A DNA stretch of 64,000 nucleotides from Octopus vulgaris (Eukaryota). The notes beneath the pieces were generated by a model that did no database searches, was not told the origin of the DNA, and saw only the letters and a program-made list of their open reading frames with translations. This document shows positions 21,268 to 61,657 of this stretch, piece by piece (position 1 is the stretch's first letter; each line of letters starts with the position of its first letter). The position numbers and the translations under genes are program-made. Where the stretch lies: NCBI GenBank assembly GCA_951406725.2, contig OX597815.1, forward strand, positions 214,706,001 through 214,770,000, read 5' to 3'.

Positions 21268-21600
21268 AAATAATAATGAAATTATTGTGTACAGTGCTCA
21301 GGTGCACCACAACTTGTCAAAAGTGCGTATAAAGCATATACAGTAATGTAGAAATGTCTGGGAAGTGAACAGTGTATGAGTCAGATAGATGCTTGCGTGT
21401 GTATGGAGGGGAGAAAATCAGGTGTAGTGTTGGTGAATCTCAGAAAGCATGAAAGTTTTGAAGGATGCAGTGCTCCGACAACTAACAACTGATGCCGGCA
21501 GTTTGTTCCATGCTTCAGCAACTCTTTGCATGAAAAAATGTTTCCGAAAGTCATGGAAGGAGCTGTGCTGTTTTCTGACTTTGTAAATATGGTATGAACA
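21268..21600 (-). mobile_element. CR1-type LINE 3' end
   Basis: ORF 21418-21603 KHFFMQRVAEAWNKLPASVV...ASFKT, then a 3' UTR ending in (ATT)n. Confidence 0.85.
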
Positions 21601-23307
21601 CAAGCATCATACAGTCTGAGGGAGAAGGCCTTTATTGCGAAAAGAGTTAACAGCTACTAGCCTTCTCTCTCTCTCTCTATCTCTCCCTCTTCTCTTTTTC
21701 TGCAGTGCATAAAGATGGCTACTGTGGTTTCAATATTTTTGGTGATCTTGTGTATTTTGTATGAATCAAGTTATATATGTTGTTGTTGTTGTTACATCCA
21801 GTGCAGAATTAGTTTTTTGTGCTAGAATTTAAAAAATGTGTTTTGTTCCTCAGTTGTTGTTGTCTACCTTCAGGTATTACATTTGGTGCAGGAACAATTA
21901 CTTATGCCTTATGCTTTCCCAATTTGCATAAGAAATATCTTGCAGCCACTCCTTATTAGTTATTATCATGTATAGTATAATATACAACGAAGAAGGTATA
22001 CATATAGGTATAAAATATAAGTTTCTGTTTAGTGATCTGCATACATACTTAAAATGTGCCTATGTTGAAAGCCTTTTAAACAGCAGTATTCATTCTGAGA
22101 GAGAGACATATAGTGTTAAGACATAAAAAAATATCTATTTCCTTATTGCCCACAAGGGGCTAAACACAGAGGGGACAAACAAGGACAGAAAAAAGGGATT
22201 AAGTCGATTACATCGACCCCAGTGCGTATCTGTTAAAGGCAGGCATAGGTCACCCAATGTTGATCATAACATTGCTGTATTTTTAACACTATATATCTAT
22301 AAGAGATACTCTCTCCAGGTGAATACCACTGTTTAGGTTGTCAACATATATGCACTTGTATACACAAGTATGTATACAGATTGCTAAGCTTCAACTAATA
22401 CCCACCACAACAGAATTGAGATCCTAAAACCAAGGTGCCATGTGCCAGTGCCACGTAAAATGCACTGGAGATGGTGTTACATAAAAGGCATCCAGTACAC
22501 TCTGTAAAGTAGTTGGCATTAAGAAGGGCATCCAGCTGTAGAAACCAAGCCAGAATCAACTGGTGTGGAACTGGTGTGGCCTCGGGCCTTATCAGTTCCT
22601 ATCAAGTTGTCCAACTCATGGCAGCTTGGAAAATGGGTGTTAAATGTTGATGATGATGACTGCTTCCATTGCTAATAATAAATCTTTATATAGACACACA
22701 CATACACACTTATACAATTTTATATATATATATATATAATCATCCTGTACACTCAGTAAAGTGGTTGGCACTAGGAAGGGCATTCAGCTGTAGAAACCAT
22801 ACCAAAACAGACAATTTGAACATGGATGGCTCTCTGGTTTGCCAGCATGGAAAATGGACGTTAAATGACGATGACAATGATAATGAATCATTGTTGTTTT
22901 GGCATCCACTTTTCCATACTTGCATCATTCAGATGGAGTTTATTGAGGCAGAATTCTTATAGCTAAATGTCCTTCCTGTCACCAACCCGCACCTGTTTTC
23001 AAGCAAGTTAATATTTCTCCATGGACAGACATGTTTTCGTAGAATATTGAAAATGACTGACACTGCATGTATGACAGTGGACTTGTGTGACTGTCATTCA
23101 ATGTCAAGATAAGGCAACTCAAACACACACACACGTGTGCACATGATGGGCTTTATTGAGTTTCTGTCTATCAAATACACTAAGGCTTTGGTCAGCCCAA
23201 GGCAATAGTAGAAAACACTTGCCCAGTGTGCCACAAACTGGGACTGAACATGTAACCATGTGGTTGGGAAGCAAATTTCCTAATAATGCATCAATGCTTG
23301 CACCATT

Positions 23308-24729: not shown

Positions 24730-25004
24730 TACACTCAAACACATATATGTATATGTACTCATGCTGGCTTCATGTAAAAATCACCTTTCGAGCGTTGGGT
24801 CACACAGAGGCTATGACAAATGGCCAAGACTTTTGGCAATATGCTATGCATGATAAGACCCATCAAGCCAAGTAGTCTTGGCGGATACTGGTGTCATGCA
24901 ACTGACACCCATGCAGGTGGTACGTAATAGCACCTATCACACTCTTGGAGTCATTGGCATTAGGAAGGGCATCCAGTCATAGAAACCATGCCGAAATAGC
25001 CCTA

Positions 25005-25468
25005 TTGAATACTACTGGTCAAATGACCTTGCTTAAATTCCTCATTCTCCTGTGTGCGTTCCTCCCTATTTTGGCCAAAATAACTCTGTTGAACACTACC
25101 GGTCAAATGACCTTGCTTAAATTCCTCATTCTCCTGTGTGCGTTCCTCCCTATTTTGGCCAAAATAACTCTGTTGAACACTACCGGTCAAATGACCTTGC
25201 TTAAATTCCTCATTCTCCTGTGTGCGTTCCTCCCTATTTTGGCCAAAATAACTCTGTTGAACACTACCGGTCAAATGACCTTGCTTAAATTCCTCATTCT
25301 CCTGTGTGCGTTCCTCCCTATTTTGGCCTAAATAACTCTGTTGAACACTACCGGTCAAATGACCTTGCTTAAATTCCTCATTCTCCTGTGTGCGTTCCTC
25401 CCTATTTTGGCCAAAATAACTCTGTTGAACACTACCGGTCAAATGACCTTGCTTAAATTCCTCATTCT
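25005..25468 (+). repeat. 84-bp tandem repeat, 5.5 near-identical copies
   Basis: Unit starts at 25005, 25089, 25173, 25257, 25341 and 25425. It contains the palindrome TATTTTGGCCAAAATA. The + frame reads MTLLKFLILLCAFLPILAKITLLNTTGQ. Confidence 0.97.
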
Positions 25469-32970: not shown

Positions 32971-33117
32971 CCAAAATGGTGAAAGGCAAAAATGAACTCA
33001 TTGAGATTTGATCTTTAGAGTCTAAGTGTGACTGTATGTTTAAGAAGTTTGTTTATTAATTTCCAGTTTCCCATGTAAAACAATGTTTGCCCATGAGGAA
33101 ATATTAACTGGCTTGGA

Positions 33118-34164
33118 AGTAATGCAATGGAAAGTGCAAGGAATATTCATGCAATATATGGGGATCAGACAATAAGTGTAAGCCAATATCAACGGTGGTT
33201 CCAGAAATTCCAAGCAGGAAACTATAGCCTAGAAGGCAAGCCTCATCCTGGAAGATCTGTAGAGCTCGACGAAGATGTCCTACAAACCCTGGTCGAATAA
33301 AATTCCATCATAACTGTTGAGGAACTAGGAGAAAAGCTTGGATTTGGTCATTCAATCATTCATTGACACCTGTGTACAATCAGAATAGTCAACAAATTGA
33401 GTCAATGTGTTCCTCGCAAACTCTCCAAGTCTAATCACATGCAGAGAGTGAATGTGTGCTCTTCTTTGCTGTCACGTCTCATGAATGAACCTCTTTTGAA
33501 CCGAATAGACACTGGTGACGAGAAATGGGTTCTCTATAAAAATGTCGAGTACTGAAGACAGTGGGTAGGGAAAGGAGAAACACTGGCACCCCAGGCTAAA
33601 GGCGTTCATCACCCACATATGGTATTGCTATCTGTTTGGTGGGATATGAAAGGTTTAGTCCACTTTGAACGTTTTAAACCCAAACCAAACGATAACAAAG
33701 GAGATCTAACTGCAAGCAGCCTGAGTGGCTTAAGCCAGTGCTAGAAGAAAAACGGCCATCTTTGGTTTCAAGATGAAAGGTGTTCTTCCATTAGGATAAT
33801 GCTCAGCTGTGTACATCGAGGATGACATTCCTAAGGCTGGAGCAGTTTGAATAGGAAATGATGCCCCACCCACCATATTTGCTGGTCATTGCCCCATCTG
33901 ATAATCATTTATTCTGCAGTCTTCAAAATCATTTGGACGGAAAATATATGAATTCTGTAGACGAGGTCAGAACAGTACTGGAGGAGTATCTTGCATCACA
34001 GACAAGTGAATTTTGGAAGAGGGACTTTGCAAGTCTACCAGAGAGATAGAAGAGCATTGTAGAAAATGAAGGAGAATATATTTTAGATTAGAAAAGAACT
34101 TTATCTTAACTTTGAAAAATAAAAGAAGTATAAAAAACCGCATTATTTATGGGATGACCCAATA
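33118..34164 (+). mobile_element. mariner transposon relic (DD34D-type transposase pseudogene, 5' truncated)
   Basis: RWFQKFQAG..HPGR..CVPRKL..RIDTGDEKWVLY..VWWDMKG..H*DNA..PHPPY...APSDNHLF..YILD*, with several stops and frameshifts. The 3' TIR CGCATTATTTATGGGATGACCCAATA is followed by TA. Confidence 0.93.
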
Positions 34165-43539: not shown

Positions 43540-44998
43540 GGTACAAACTCAAGGACTGAAACCACCCAGGTGTTGATAGCTTCGATCTTATTCTGTCCAT
43601 TTAATTTCAACTTAAGGATCAGGATCAGTCTGAGCAAGTACTGCACCTTAAATTTTTGTCATTTCTTTCTCCATCAATTTATCCATTTCCCAAATCCTTA
43701 AGTACTTATAGCCTGTCTCTTCTATCTGCTTCATAACCTCCCCCAACAGTATCGTTAGCCCATCCATACATTTGATTTTGCCTCTCTTGAAGACTAATAC
43801 ACCACACTTTCACAGTCCAAACTCTATTCTGATATTAGCACTGAAGGTATACACTGTATCAATGAGGAAACTGACTTGGGTTTCATCTTTATCATAAACT
43901 TTGATGTCATCCATGAATAACAAATGGTTGACGTTTTGTTGGCGACTTTTGAATAAATACCCAACTTTTGCTTTCCTCAGAATCAGTGTTAGTGGTATCA
44001 AGCACAGTACAAAGATCAGTGGGGACAGGCAGTTCCCTTGGAAGATGCCCCTCCTAATTTCTACTGTCCCTAAACTTCTTCCGTATGGTGTGAGGTCCGT
44101 CCTCCAATTCGCCATACTTTTTCCAAGTAATCGCTCAACATTCAATGCAATACCAAATAGGTTCAAACATTCCATAATCCAAGAGTGTGGGAGCATATCA
44201 TACGCCTTACAATAGTCGATCCACGACATGGCTAAGTTACTTTTCCTCCTCTTGTAGTCTCTAAGTACAGTTTTGTCAATCAGGAGTAGATCCTTGGTAC
44301 CTCTGCACTTACGCTTGCAACCCTTCTGCTCGTGTGGCTGGACTCCATTTTTTTTCCAGATGTTTGTACATTGACTCTGCGAGTATTCCAGTCAATAACT
44401 ACCACATGAGTAGCAAACAGGATATCAGCCTGTAATTGCCTACCATATTGCCTTTTTCAATGTTTTTCTAGCACGGCACTGTCCTACCAAATGTCAACCA
44501 CTCTGGTGTTACTTGGTTGGTGTTCAGTTGTGTGGCTATTAGTGCATGACATTCACCAAATCTTTTGATCCAGTACCCTTGAACTCCATCTGGTCCTGGG
44601 CCCTTCCAGTTGCTAATTTTTTTGCTGATTTCCTTCACTTCTCTAACTGAAATGACTAGTTCTGCCTGTTTTGGACAGACTACTGTTTGTTTCAGTTCTT
44701 GCAACCATTCAGCATCCTTCTTGTGCTCCTTGTCTTTGCTCCAGATGTCACTCCAAAACCTTTGACTTTCATTGTTATCTGGTATCAACTTTTCACCTGT
44801 ACACTCTCCACTTATTTCTTTATAAAATCTCTTCTGATCTACTCTGAATAACCTATTCTGGTGGTAACCCTTCATTCTTCGGTAGTATCTTACCATCTTT
44901 CCTTTCTTTGCCATGAGGCTCTGTTTCAGTTCCTCTATTACTACTTTCAGGCCCTTTCTTTCAATATTATCCTTTCTTTTCAGCGCCCTGTAGAAAGG
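43540..44998 (-). mobile_element. R4/Dong-clade non-LTR retrotransposon fragment (RT region)
   Basis: NWKGPGPDGVQGYWIKRF; [20 protein letters not shown]; [22 protein letters not shown]; [12 protein letters not shown]; LNGQNKIEAINTW. Its 5' junction abuts an (AAT/AAC)n run. Confidence 0.9.
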
Positions 44999-51286: not shown

Positions 51287-51885
51287 TTAGTTAGTTAGTT
51301 AGTTAATTTGGCTCAAAAGCAAATAGCAAGGCCATGTAGGGGGACATGGAGTTAAGTACAGGGTGGTGTTCATGTAAAGAGTTCAGGCCACTTGAGGTCC
51401 AGGGAGGTTTTGAACAAAGCGGTCGTTGGCATCTTCACCATCTCGTCTGGCAGCTTGTTCCACGGATCCGCAACCCGGACGGAGAAAGCTCCTCTCCTTC
51501 GATTGAGATGAAATCGTCGCAGGTAGAGCTTTCCGGAATGACCCCACAGCCGACACTCTGGAGCAGGAGTGAAGAACAGCTCTTTCGAGAGGTTACACTT
51601 TCCGCTTATGATGTTGTGGGCGAGAATGAGATCACCACGGCGGCGGCGTTTTTCAAGAGAATAAAGGTCGAGCGTCCTCAGCCATTCTTCGTAGGACAAA
51701 TTTTTGAGACCATGAACCATGCGGGTAGCCAGCTTCTGGACTCTTTCGAGATGCTGTATGTCTTTGAGGAGATAAGGAGAAGAGGCTTGAATCCCATATT
51801 CCAATATGGGTCTCACCAGTGTGACATAGAGTGGTAGGAATATGGCTGCTGTGAGCATTCCGAATGACCGTCGAATCAAGAACAT
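51287..51885 (-). mobile_element. CR1-clade LINE, 5'-truncated young copy
   Basis: Open ORF 51370-51885 LYVTLVRPILEYG..LERVQKLATRMV..LSYEEWL..LYSLEKRRRRGDLI..FSVRVADPWNKLP, short 3' UTR, (CTAA)n tail. Confidence 0.93.
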
Positions 51886-52154
51886 ATCTGCAAGTACATT
51901 ATCAAATGTGACCTATCCTCTTATAAGACAGTCCTTGTACAGAGTGGGGTTTGAGAAATATTTGGTTGCTATTTACAGCTGGTCGAGCGCTTGTATAGAC
52001 AACCTATCATCCAACTTCCAGTTGCATCACATGGTATATTTTTGTGTTGTAGTATCGTTGTTCCTTTTTTAAAAAGACATATCACTCTACCTGTCTTCCT
52101 AAAAACTTTAATGCCTTATTAAGAAATACTATATTGATTGTTTCACCTTAATTA

Positions 52155-52214
52155 CAATGACTAAATTTGTAATAATAATAATGATTGTTTTTCTTTTCTT
52201 TTGTCTTTTTGCAG
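52155..52214 (+). promoter_or_regulatory. strong 3' splice site (branch-point candidate, polypyrimidine tract, CAG)
   Basis: TGACTAAA at ~52158; TTGTTTTTCTTTTCTTTTGTCTTTTTGCAG ending at 52214, in non-repeat sequence. Confidence 0.65.
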
Positions 52215-52260
52215 GTGAGTATTACTAAGTTTCTTCTGTAAGTAATGGCGAATCAGAGCT
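52215..52260 (+). other. candidate 46-nt exon starting with a 5' splice-site motif; contains ATG GCG AAT CAG AGC T (MANQS, phase 1)
   Basis: CAG|GTGAGT at 52215, internal GTAAGT at 52238, GTAATGG start context at 52245, donor GTGAGT at 52261. Confidence 0.55.
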
Positions 52261-52557
52261 GTGAGTAAATCTTATATTTCTTCATATTATTATTATTTCT
52301 TATTATAAGTTGGTGGGCTTGCAGAATTGTTTGCACACTGGACAAATTGCTTTGCAGCATTCCATCCGTCTTTACATTCTGAGTTCAATTCCTGCCACCT
52401 TTCATTCAACCTTTCAGGATCGATCAGCTAAATATATCCCTCAAATCACACTTTGCTATCTTAAAAGAAACACACTGAATTATGTGGTCTCACTTTGTAA
52501 CTTGCAAAACTAAAGGGACACCTCAACTGGGAGGGGGAATAAGTAGTAGAGTCTCTG

Positions 52558-52720
52558 CAGCGTTTCTCAACCGGGGCTCCCCAGAACCCTAGGGTTCCGT
52601 AAAAGATTCCTTGGAGTTCTGCAAGAAAGAGTGAAATAAGCTAATACTAATTTCATGGTCATAATATTACTATTCATGAACAATGTATTGGTTATTGTAA
52701 TATTGTAATAGAGACATCAT
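52558..52720 (+). mobile_element. hAT (Charlie-like) element 5' fragment
   Basis: Starts CAGCGTTTCTCAACCGGGG..CCCTAGGGTTCCG; no partner TIR seen. Confidence 0.55.
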
Positions 52721-56299: not shown

Positions 56300-57870
56300 G
56301 CATCTTCTGAAGAATCCTATGTAACCAGATACCTATATAACCATTGTCATCTCCTCCATGAGGCCCAACATCCTGAAATCAATCCTCACTACTTCATTCC
56401 ATGTCTTCTTGGGTCTCCCCTCGTCTGCAGGTGCCATCCACTTTAAGCCATGCAGCTGTCTTCATTCATACACATCATATGTCCAAACCAACAGTCTTCT
56501 CTCTTGCATGCTGCATCTGATTCCTCTTATGCCCAACTTTTCTCACAGCACATTTGCACTTTGTTGTATATGCACCCTGATGATGCACATCCAATGGACC
56601 CTAACCCCTAATCTATGAATTTCTTCTGCATTCAGAGCTCATGTCTCACTACCATAGAGAATAGTCGTTTGTACACAAGCATCATACAATCTGCTGCTTT
56701 TCAGTCTGAGAGAAAGTCCAGCTCCCTGAACTTCCTCCTTTCTATTCTTATTCTAGCAGCAATACTTTCAGAACATCCTCCTCTATTGCTAATCTGGTCA
56801 TCTAGGTAACTGAAACTATCTACAACCTCAAGAGTTTCCTGGGCATTTCAAAGAGTCTAATTCTTGTGTGTCATATGAAGGTGACTTTTTCTGTTAATCT
56901 ACATCTGATTCTGCTGTACCTCTTATGTGTTCATAGCTTACACTGCATGCAATGGATGGAATTCCTTCCAACTCCTTTCCTGCATATTGAGCAAGTCCAT
57001 TTACTTGAAGGAAATAGAGTTTTATCTCTTTTCTTGCCCATAACAACTTTGATCTTTACCAGGTTAACTTTAAAGCCATTTGATCCCAGGTTTTGGTTCC
57101 ATACCTGGAATTTCTTCTTTGATTCTGCAGATTCTGAAGTAAGAGCAAGGTCATCAGTATATAGTAGTTCCCATGGGTAGCTAGTTTTAAATTCCTCTGT
57201 TATGGCCTGGAGGATTATGGTAAGAGTGGACTAAGAACTGAGCTCTAGTGAACCCCCATTTGTATGCTAAATACATCACTGTATTTGTGGCTGATTTTCA
57301 CCTTACTGACAGCACCACTGAACATAGCTTGTACAACTTTAACAGGCAGCTCATCTACTCCGAACTTCCTTAAAGATCACTAGATAACAGAGCGAAGGAT
57401 TCTGTCAAATGATTTCCAGCTGATAAAAGTCAGGTACAATGTTTACTTTTTGCCAAATACTTCTCCTCCAGTTGTCTCACCAGGAAAATGGCATCTATCA
57501 GATTCTTCCCAGATACAAAAGTGAATTCCATCTCATCTTGCTTAATTCTATTCCTGCTCAATGGAGTTATAACTCTCTCTGTAACTTTCATGACCTGGTA
57601 CTGCAGTTTGATACCTCTGTAGTTATTTCTCTCTAAGGCATCACCTTGCGACAGCTAAATATAATATTACTACCCCAATCATTGGGGTTCATGCCTTCCT
57701 GAATAACCCAATTAACTGTATGAGTGACTAGGCTGTATCTTACACCGCTAATTATCTTAATCATATCGGCAGTGATTCCTCATAGTCCAAGGGTTTTCTT
57801 GGTCTTCATATCCTTAATTGACTTCCCTATTATATTGCTGTCAAATCTAACGGTTGGTCCCCCAGTTAGT
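56300..57870 (-). mobile_element. decayed RTE-clade LINE, RT through C-terminus
   Basis: Minus strand: SIKDMKTKK..GITADMIK..GDALERNNYRGIKL..ELLYTDDLAL..WTCSICRKGVGRNSIHCMQCKL..VVDSFSYLD. Same family as 1-760. Confidence 0.88.
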
Positions 57871-58627
57871 TCAATATTTGAAAGATTCTTCAGTTTCATT
57901 TCGAATCCATAGTGTTGATATATTACCATTATGCATAACTTTAGAATCATTGATATCAAGGTATGACATGTCATATTCATATGTACAATGGACGCAAGAC
58001 CAGACAAGTAGTGTTTCATATTTGGTATTTCTTCAGTATGCGGAGTGACATTTCCTCCCAACTCACACACACATACACAATGGCCTCCTTTCACTTTTCA
58101 TCTACGAAATCCACTCAATAGCTAGAAAGCTGGTTCTTCTGATCACCAGCCAGCCTCAACTTTGAAGCATAAGTAGAGATAACCATAACTATTAATTAAA
58201 CTGAGACAAGTCTCAGTTTAATTATACTATCACTTACTCTGTCTACCTCAGTTACCTCATCTCCTCACTTTTCAGCTAAAATTATGCCTTTGCTAGTCAC
58301 TCCATCACTCCTATCTACTCACTTTTCAGTTAAAAGTCTCCCTAAACTACCCACTCCATCACACCTCTCTACCCAGAACAATTTCAACCTCTGTTTCTTA
58401 ACCATGAGCATTCTAGCAGAGGCTCCCATCCATCATTCTTATTGCACACCACACGTCTACATGACATCACACCAGCATTTCAATAATATCACCAGTCCGT
58501 TTTTGTCATTGTGCCAATATTCATAGTAGTGGAATAGTGATTGTATAGCTCAAAGTAAAAGTGTAAATGCAGTAATAGTGGACATTTTTTTAACACTGTT
58601 ATTTTCCAAATAGTTTCTGTTATTTCT

Positions 58628-58979
58628 TAATACATGTACAGAATGAGGGCAAATAGAATTCTAATGTCCAGGCTAATTCTGGCTCAGATGCTGCTTGTTC
58701 CTGATGCATCAGCATCAAAATTTTTCCTTCTAGTATTCATATATTTATCTTCAAATGTCTTTTGACAAATTCGAGGACGTCATTAGAAAACAGCCAAGTT
58801 AAAGATTCTTCAGTTACATTTAGTATCAATAATGGTGATATAATACCAATGCATAATTTTAAAAGTATTCATATCGAAGTATGTCTTGTCACATTCAAAT
58901 GTACGATGGACACAATGCTGGACAGGTAGAGTTTTATATTTGATATTTCTTCAGTCCGAAGAGTGGCATTTTCTCCCAA
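58628..58979 (-). pseudogene. decayed coding segment for an Ig-like domain with hydrophobic C-terminal tail (one per array unit; others at 57881-58060, 59487-59839, 60348-60699, 61205-61651)
   Basis: Consensus across copies: LGENVTL..(frameshift)..KTLLVWxCVHRTYECDKTYFDINxFKVMHNGNISTLWIRNVTEESLTWLFSDDILEFVKRHLKIK..ADESGTSSI*ASISLDIRILFALILYMY*. Confidence 0.6.
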
Positions 58980-59034
58980 CTCGCACACATATAAACAATA
59001 GTCTTCTTTCAATTTCCATCTACCAAATCCACTC

Positions 59035-59430
59035 ACTGTAAAACTGGTCCTTCTGATGAACTGCCAGCCTCAACTTTGAAGCATAGGCAAAGATAACAGT
59101 AACTATTAATTTATCTTTGATAAGTCTCACTTTAATTACCCTATCACTTACTCTGACTACTTCAGTTACCTTATCTGCTCACTTTTCATCTAAAAGTATA
59201 CCAACACTACTCAAGTTATCACTCTTATCTACCCAGAACAATTTCAACTTCTGTTTCTTAACCATCAGCAATGTAGCAGAGGCAACCATCCATCGTTCTT
59301 ATTGCACACCACATGTCTGCATGGCATCACACCAGCATTTTTCAATAATCTCACCAGTCCTTCCTTTCATTGTGCCAATATCCATGGTTGTTGCACTGTA
59401 ATTGTGTAACTGGGAGTAAGAGTGAGAAGG
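59035..59430 (-). mobile_element. RTE apurinic endonuclease N-terminal fragment (one per unit; also ~58125-58570, 59900-60290, 60755-61150)
   Basis: Minus strand: DIGTMKGRTGEIIE..KLFWV..VGILLDEK*ADKVTEVVRVSDRVIKVRLIK..VTVIFAYA..QKDQFY. Confidence 0.85.
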
Positions 59431-61657
59431 AAGTCATTGTGGACATTTTTATAACACTGCTATTTTCTGAGTTTCTGGTATTTCTTTGTACATGTACAAA
59501 ATGAGATCAAATAGAATTCTAATGTCCAGGGTCATGTTGGCTCAGATGCTGCTTGTTCCAGATTCATCAGCCACAACATTTTTCTTTCTTGTATTCATAT
59601 ATTTTATCTTCAAATGCCTTTTGACAAATTCGAGGATGTCATCAGAAGACTGCAAGTTAAAGATTCTTCAGTTACGTTTCGAATCCATAGCATGGAGATA
59701 TTATTGTTATGCAAATCTTTAAAAGCATTCATATTGAGGTATGTTTTGTTACATTCATATATACGATGGACACAATGCTGGACAGGTAGTGTTTTATATT
59801 TGGTATTTCTGCAGTCCGAAGTGTGACATTTCCACTCAAATTACACACACATCCAAACAATTGTCTCCTTTCATCTTCCATCTACCAAACCACTCACTAG
59901 CTGGAAAGCTGCTCCTTCTAACTACCAGCCAGCCTCAACCCTAAAGCATAAGCAGAAATAACTGTACCTATTAATTTATCTGTTATATGTCTCAGTTTAA
60001 TTATCCTATCACTTACTCTACATGAGTTACATTATCTGCTCACTTTTCAGCTAAAAGTATGCCTATACTACCCACTCCATTACTCCTATCTGCCAAGAAC
60101 AATTTCAACCTTTGTTTCTTAACAATGAGCAATCCAGCAGAGGCTCCCATCACTCTTTCTTATTGCACACCACATGTCTACATGGCATTGCACCAGCATT
60201 TCAATAATCTCACCAGTCTTTCCTTTCATTCTGCCAATATTGATTATAGTGGTACTGTAAATGTGTAGCTGAGAGTAAAAGTGTAAACGCAGTAATAGTG
60301 GACATTTTTTTAACACTGTTATTTTCCAAATAGTTTCTGTTATTTCTTAATACATGTACAGAATGAGGGCAAATAGAATTCTAATGTCCAGGGTCATGTT
60401 GGCTTAGATGCTGCTTGTTCCTGATGCATTAGCATCAAAATTTTTCCTTCTAGTATTCATATATTTATCTTCAAATGTCTTTTGACAAATTCGAGGACGT
60501 CATTAGAAAACAGCCAAGTTAAAGATTCTTCAGTTACATTTAGTATCAATAATGGTGATATAATACCAATGCATAATTTTAAAAGTATTCATATCGAAGT
60601 ATGTCTTGTCACATTCAAATGTACGATGGACACAATGCTGGACAGGTAGAGTTTTATATTTGATATTTCTTCAGTCCGAAGAGTGGCATTTTCTCCCAAC
60701 TCGCACACATATAAACAATAGTCTTCTTTCAATTTCCATCTACCAAATCCACTCACTGTAAAACTGGTCCTTCTGATGAACAGCCAGCCTCAACTTTGAA
60801 GCATAAGCAAAGATAACAGTAACTATTAATTTATCTTTGATAAGTCTCACTTTAATTACCCTATCACTTACTCTGACTACTTCAGTTACCTTATCTGCTC
60901 ACTTTTCATCTAAAAGTATACCAACACTACTCAAGTTATCACTCTTATCTACCCAGAACAATTTCAACTTCTGTTTCTTAACCATCAGCAATGTAGCAGA
61001 GGCAACCATCCATCGTTCTTATTGCACACCACATGTCTGCATGGCATCACACCAGCATTTTTCAATAATCTCACCAGTCCTTCCTTTCATTGTGCCAATA
61101 TCCATGGTAGTGGCACTGTAATTGTGTAGCTGGGAGTAAGAGTGAGAAGGAAGTCATTGTGGACATTTTTATAACACTGCTATTTTCTGAGTTTCTGGTA
61201 TTTCTTAGTACATGTACAAAATGACAGCAAATGGAATTCTAATGTCCAGGCTAATGCTGGCTCAGATGCTGCTTGTTCCAGGTTCATCAGCCTCAAAACT
61301 TTTCTCTGTTATATTCTTATTTTTTTATCTTCAAATGTCTTTTCACAAATTCGAGGATATCATCATAAAACAGCCAAGTTAAAGATATTTCAGTTATATT
61401 TCAAATCCATAGAGTTGACATATTACCATTATGCATAACTTTAAAACATTGATATCGAAGTATGTCTTGTCACATTGCATTTTGGATCTAGATAGTATAG
61501 ATGTTGCCAATATGCATGTCTTTAAAAGTGTTGATACTAAAGCATATCCTGTAACATTCATATTTCTAGTGGCTGCTATGCCAGAAAAGCAGTCATACAC
61601 ATTTGATATTGCCTTATTATAAAGAGTGACATATTCTCCCAAATGAACTGGTCAAAA

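Follow-up and report, generated by a model that had tools for sequence, protein, structure and literature searches.

A candidate recursive splice site, read as an intronic ratchet point, in the genome of Octopus vulgaris

Evidence for recursive splicing exists for flies, mice and humans (PMC13149111; 10.1101/2024.12.11.627982; accessible parts of both), and enrichment of its motif extends to mosquito, bee, beetle and sea urchin (PMC2773006), while the ratio in vertebrates is 0.9–1.5, that is, almost no enrichment (PMC2773006). The species surveyed, 13 in PMC2773006 and 7 in PMC6224609, include no mollusc. A literature search for recursive splicing in octopus, in which subscription journals are thinly covered, found no report; its counterpart for squid or molluscs returned only single mentions in papers that, by title, deal with other subjects, and pairing recursive splicing with spiralian terms gave none among the matches listed. 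The best described systems are the intronic ratchet points of the Drosophila genes kuz, Bx and Ubx (PMC8605326, PMC6110457). They are followed by a cryptic exon of ~50 nt that is generally out of frame, and their ratchet donor is usually the stronger one, which predicts skipping of the exon, with exceptions reported (PMC8605326). For most of them another donor lies at most 100 nt away (PMC6224609). The fly site table contains CAGGTGAGT 48 times, CAGGTAAGT 27 times and AGGT 560 times; these are counts of strings and not of rows (PMC6110457 supplement).

The window analysed here, a stretch of 64,000 nt of Octopus vulgaris DNA, carries on its + strand a site that shares with the Drosophila ratchet points a pyrimidine tract joined to CAG|GTRAGT, a short predicted out-of-frame cryptic exon of about 50 nt, a ratchet donor stronger than the downstream donor and exon-poor surroundings. 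It differs from them in its mollusc host and in having two downstream donors at an exact spacing of 23 nt, and it is known from sequence alone. A second group of fly elements, the expressed RS-exons (Ubx m1 and m2, msi, heph, ps, sm, mub; PMC8605326), has in common with the octopus site a short exon that opens with a donor motif; these exons are included or skipped by donor choice. The Ubx microexons m1 and m2 are 51 nt long and preserve the frame, whereas neither octopus segment (23 or 46 nt) has a length divisible by three; as the 46-nt form is moreover closed, neither has the make-up of a frame-preserving neural microexon. Vertebrate RS-exons of the CADM2 type, which are repressed by the exon junction complex, share the order of events proposed here, exon definition followed by competition between the regenerated and the downstream donor; in human they are mostly annotated constitutive exons, with only about ten efficient intronic sites (PMC6224609). 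Dual-specific splice sites share the AGGT core, whose letters fit a donor as well as an acceptor; according to the available part of PMC10809524 they are used alternatively and are typically weak, whereas the octopus site is strong on both sides.

A direct check of the sequence located every splice element and the ATG of the original prediction where it had placed them. The site is preceded by a zone of 89 nt free of AG (52124–52212, + strand), which contains branch-point-like words; the closest candidate, an imperfect match, is an A ~51 nt upstream of the junction that would have to act as the putative branch point. The U-rich polypyrimidine tract (52190–52211) has 80% T in the scored 20 nt, and 19 of the 20 nt ahead of the CAG, with one base skipped, are pyrimidines. 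The CAG is the predicted 3' splice acceptor (52212–52214, its AG at 52213–52214) and abuts directly the ratchet, or regenerated, donor GTGAGTAT (52215–52222), whose GTGAGT starts at 52215. Two more donor-like sites follow on the same strand, GTAAGTA at 52238–52244 (+23, GTAAGT at 52238) and GTGAGTA at 52261–52267 (+46), the latter being the predicted RS-exon donor for exon definition. The predicted cryptic RS-exon of 46 nt, so called by analogy with fly RS-exons, would extend from 52215 to 52260. Read from its 5' end, it meets stop codons in each of the three frames, while the 23-nt segment that ends at the second donor has one open frame and a length that is not a multiple of three. Between the second and third donors lies a stretch initiated by ATG (52245–52260, + strand; ATG at 52245–52247 in GTAATGG) that reads MANQS plus one base and whose function is doubtful. 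The three donor-like sites each read GTRAGTA and are spaced by exactly 23 nt; tandem triplication was considered as the source of this spacing and is not supported, similarity beyond the heptamers being at chance level (shuffle p 0.14–0.97). A search for RNA structure over 52120–52330 gave no signal (z = 0.18), and the 64,000-nt window had 0 Rfam matches.

The strength of the individual elements was ranked within the window. CAG|GTGAGTAT is the rank 1 U1 match among 7,729 GT sites, where U1 match is a simple count and not a trained score; of a possible 11 the ratchet donor reaches 10.5, the second donor 7.5 (rank 560) and the third 6.5 (rank 1,775). On the acceptor side, a tract of at least 95% pyrimidine is found at only 3 of 3,556 YAG sites, the fused site among them, and its AG-free zone is the third longest among 26 sites with a strong tract. 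The locus thus combines three features of ratchet points: a pyrimidine tract with YAG|GTRAG, in which the acceptor abuts a strong donor; donor-like sites within 100 nt downstream, at +23 and +46, identified by their sequence; and a ratchet donor that exceeds the RS-exon donor by U1 count. Note that a second strong acceptor-like site is present on the + strand at 21705 (20/20 pyrimidine, CAG, 43 nt free of AG), with no good donor within 300 nt of it.

Four of 24 listed sequencing runs, none of the 24 entered as RNA, were compared with the window as assembled contigs, a form of data that cannot reveal splicing intermediates. DNA run X3, whose organism label differs from that of the best-matching run, provides a single ungapped contig across 51915–52383 at a depth of 5.6, with 4 differences; the 3 that are identifiable (51985, 52029 and 52182) fall outside the tract, the junction and the donors. 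The splice core is probably intact in this relative, which is ~99% identical, and its integrity therefore says little about selection. From this one relative and from the absence of a self-match the site looks single-copy. The difference at 52182, read in one contig, creates an AG that leaves 30 nt instead of 89 free of AG, which speaks against strict constraint on the upstream zone. A single contig of 162 nt over 52407–52568 comes from run X1, which is RNA only by guess; it is a weak hint, for the contig may be DNA. Among the matches listed for X1 and X5, which are RNA by guess and whose contig gaps are uninformative, 52205–52262 is uncovered, and no GT..AG joint or loose end falls at 52214, 52237 or 52260; the matches of both runs are dominated by repeats at 52321–52397. 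DNA run X4 has no contig over 52234–52262, which as a contig gap is equally uninformative. Seven metagenome loci with a three-donor layout (L001–L007) were examined as possible homologues and rejected, since 7/7 lack a pyrimidine tract (0.35–0.55) and have no BLAST match to the window. They have a CAG|GTGAGTA donor followed by simple repeats that are themselves donor-like.

Non-repeat sequence had been claimed for the surroundings of the motif. This holds for the site, which has no self-hit and a flat single-contig depth over 52234–52262 in X3, but a repeat remnant begins ~50 nt past the third donor. The segment 52317–52397 is a diverged remnant of a very high-copy repeat. Self-matching repeats account for at least 25,352 of the 64,000 nt (at least 40% of the window). 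A LINE remnant at 51373–51912, 300 nt upstream of the site, shares 93% identity with a protein that carries the label Octopus vulgaris, the next match being at 57%, which upholds the cephalopod assignment of the DNA. This and the other LINE or reverse-transcriptase remnants (43813–44391, 56934–57230, 21457–21591) are all on the - strand, antisense to the candidate host strand. A LINE-like frame at 170–820 is on the + strand and has a partial copy at 56353–56829 on the - strand. Repeat orientation is uninformative on the host strand. A Mariner-type transposase remnant with HTH_48 and Transposase_1 lies at 33097–33741 on the + strand. The tandem array at 57881–61476 consists of four units of ~860–910 bp (seed positions 58173, 59087, 59952 and 60807) and has a second, higher-order periodicity at 1,721 bp, where identity is 93% versus ~83% between neighbours; its units 2 and 4 encode the same 104-aa frame. 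Finally, an 84-bp tandem repeat occupies 24990–25468 (5.7 copies, 97% identity); its + strand is free of AG for 480 nt and open frames are found on both strands.

A host-gene Pfam family above cut-off was found in 0 of 111 non-repeat ORFs of at least 48 aa, a screen that short coding exons could escape; the 3 Pfam matches above cut-off in the 111 ORFs are all transposon domains, and 3 others lie below it. An exon search by simple rules returned 16 candidates, none of them convincing. Strand counts were made with repeats and the site masked, which left 31,087 nt. AATAAA is depleted on the + strand (42 versus 73 on the - strand, p = 0.005), and 5/5 control hexamers of the same composition are without strand bias (p at least 0.165). 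ATTAAA (29 on the + and 28 on the - strand) and GTRAG (45 versus 44) are balanced, and a T-over-A skew is borderline (p = 0.05, 33 of 55 blocks). The strand signature is mixed, AATAAA depletion standing against weak other measures. Depletion of polyadenylation signals on transcribed strands was described in human (PMC1391917, accessible part). By analogy, the AATAAA depletion would fit a long intron on the + strand, the strand on which the motif reads, and the window is presumably intronic.

The frequency of such a motif in unselected sequence was estimated from the window. The two strands together have 185 YAG|GT junctions (+, 95; -, 90), and a tract of at least 80% pyrimidine together with GTRAG is found at 1 of the 185, the site at 52214|52215. 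Such a fusion arose in 7 of 300 order-2 Markov simulations, and 0.002–0.06 chance fusions are expected per window, depending on the threshold and treating tract and donor as independent. One additional GTRAGT at 15–80 nt downstream is a 2–4% event, and two a 0.02–0.2% event; fusion and downstream donor together have a chance of roughly 1 in 1,000 to 1 in 10,000 per window. Triple GTRAGT clusters alone are not rare, being found in 26 of 300 simulations, and microsatellites produce them. The unusual part is therefore the placement of the triple donors behind a fused site and not the clustering itself. The motif is real and statistically unusual, and unlikely by chance.

A coincidence in which a T-rich tract abuts donor-like words in DNA that is under no selection and never spliced is nevertheless the best surviving alternative, though rather unlikely. 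It keeps its place because of the published background of recursive-like sites, which at a score threshold of 80% is ~0.1 per strand in 100 kb (PMC2773006) and amounts to ~0.13 threshold-passing sites per window, and because the original prediction picked out the window's most striking motif, itself selected among many windows. The tract could be, for instance, a decayed poly(A) tail of the - strand beside a TAA microsatellite; the repeat-derived share of the window and the AG-creating variant in the X3 relative point in the same direction. Against coincidence stand a site well above the generic threshold, with the rank 1 donor and a top-3 tract, the low joint probability with a downstream donor given above, and an orientation that matches the AATAAA-depleted strand.

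It is moderately probable, from sequence and by analogy with flies, that the motif serves a + strand gene as an intronic ratchet point, with a 46-nt cryptic exon that would be mostly skipped. As a candidate, the recursive splice site put forward in the original prediction agrees with the anatomy, with the chance estimates, with the Octopus origin of the DNA and with the transcription signature of the + strand. The order of events we infer from the three ratchet-point features is exon definition, a first splice that brings the upstream exon to 52215, and a second that starts from the regenerated donor. If the Drosophila process applies, U2AF and U2 would occupy the tract and the AG, and U1 on the downstream donor at 52261, or at 52238 as a spare, would define the short exon. 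The upstream exon would then be joined to 52215, which would regenerate a donor at the new junction. This donor, to whose strength the final bases of the upstream exon will contribute, would beat the weaker downstream donors, and a second step would take out the cryptic exon together with what is left of the long intron, leaving no trace in the mRNA. Sawtooth coverage should fall towards 52214 and rise at 52215, the reverse of the drop at 52214 originally anticipated. Some inclusion of the cryptic exon is possible, because donor strength in flies did not always predict the outcome (PMC8605326); an occasional inclusion of the 46 nt would shift the frame or add stops.

The locus could also encode an expressed, regulated RS-exon in which the choice of donor sets the exon at 0, 23 or 46 nt, with the longest form bringing a start codon, for MANQS or for an upstream ORF; this is improbable. 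The ATG has a G at +4, an in-frame stop just upstream and a frame open to the third donor, its 16 coding-like bases have 50% GC versus 17–30% around them, and flies do possess a small set of expressed RS-exons, with donor strength an imperfect predictor (PMC8605326). The good context attributed to the ATG is however only partly its own: the +4 G stands, but the -3 purine, G at 52242, belongs to the second donor as its +5 G and is not independent. Any ATG occurs in 39%, an ATG in such a context in 6%, and one that is also open to the end in ~4%, of 386 overlapping 46-nt stretches, an over-masked sample. The downstream donors rank far below the ratchet donor (560 and 1,775 of 7,729), and the fly count is above 500 for intronic ratchet points and below 50 for expressed RS-exons (PMC8605326). 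Unspliced, the MANQS ORF closes after 7 codons. The 0/23/46-nt switch as a control of the start codon was thus found conceivable and nothing beyond that, with donors of 10.5 versus 7.5 and 6.5. The full version, which joins octopus recursive splicing in long introns to a three-way recursive exon that switches an N-terminus or an upstream ORF, is marginally less probable still; skipping or the 23-nt form would leave the transcript without the ATG, and the 46-nt form would add the start codon. If true, this would place a recursive site in a mollusc and put translation initiation under the control of a recursive exon.

A very improbable alternative is a small exon of the usual constitutive kind, made up of 5' UTR and the first codons, whose donor-like start would be masked once splicing has taken place, for example by the exon junction complex. 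Putative RS-exons make up 3.6% of human exons, and 93.8% of these are constitutive (PMC6224609); closed in three frames, the octopus segment could only be UTR or bear a start, and an ATG is present. Such an exon would need the donor at 52261, the weakest of the three, with the two stronger ones inside it, and in Drosophila the junction complex did not appear to act as a repressor of recursive splicing (PMC6224609), a result from fly and not from octopus. Fainter still is the chance that the site is mainly a true 5' splice site behind a U-rich UTR or an alternative first exon, or else dual-specific, for although it tops all donors of the window and its CAG is already there in the genomic sequence, and human dual-specific AGGT sites are documented (PMC10809524, available part), such sites tend to be weaker than single ones in the same source, the opposite of what is found here, the tract and the AG-free zone are acceptor features, no acceptor lies within 89 nt upstream, and the upstream DNA is the LINE remnant 51373–51912.

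The intronic ratchet point, as the preferred reading of the motif, bears on a group of animals with large genomes and long neural genes (PMC7222433, accessible part). Hundreds of cryptic ratchet points are in use in flies and few in vertebrates, and the octopus site offers a precise primer target for asking cheaply whether cephalopods follow the fly or the vertebrate pattern. The mechanism itself is not new; if confirmed, the candidate would add an octopus case to the known recursive splice sites.
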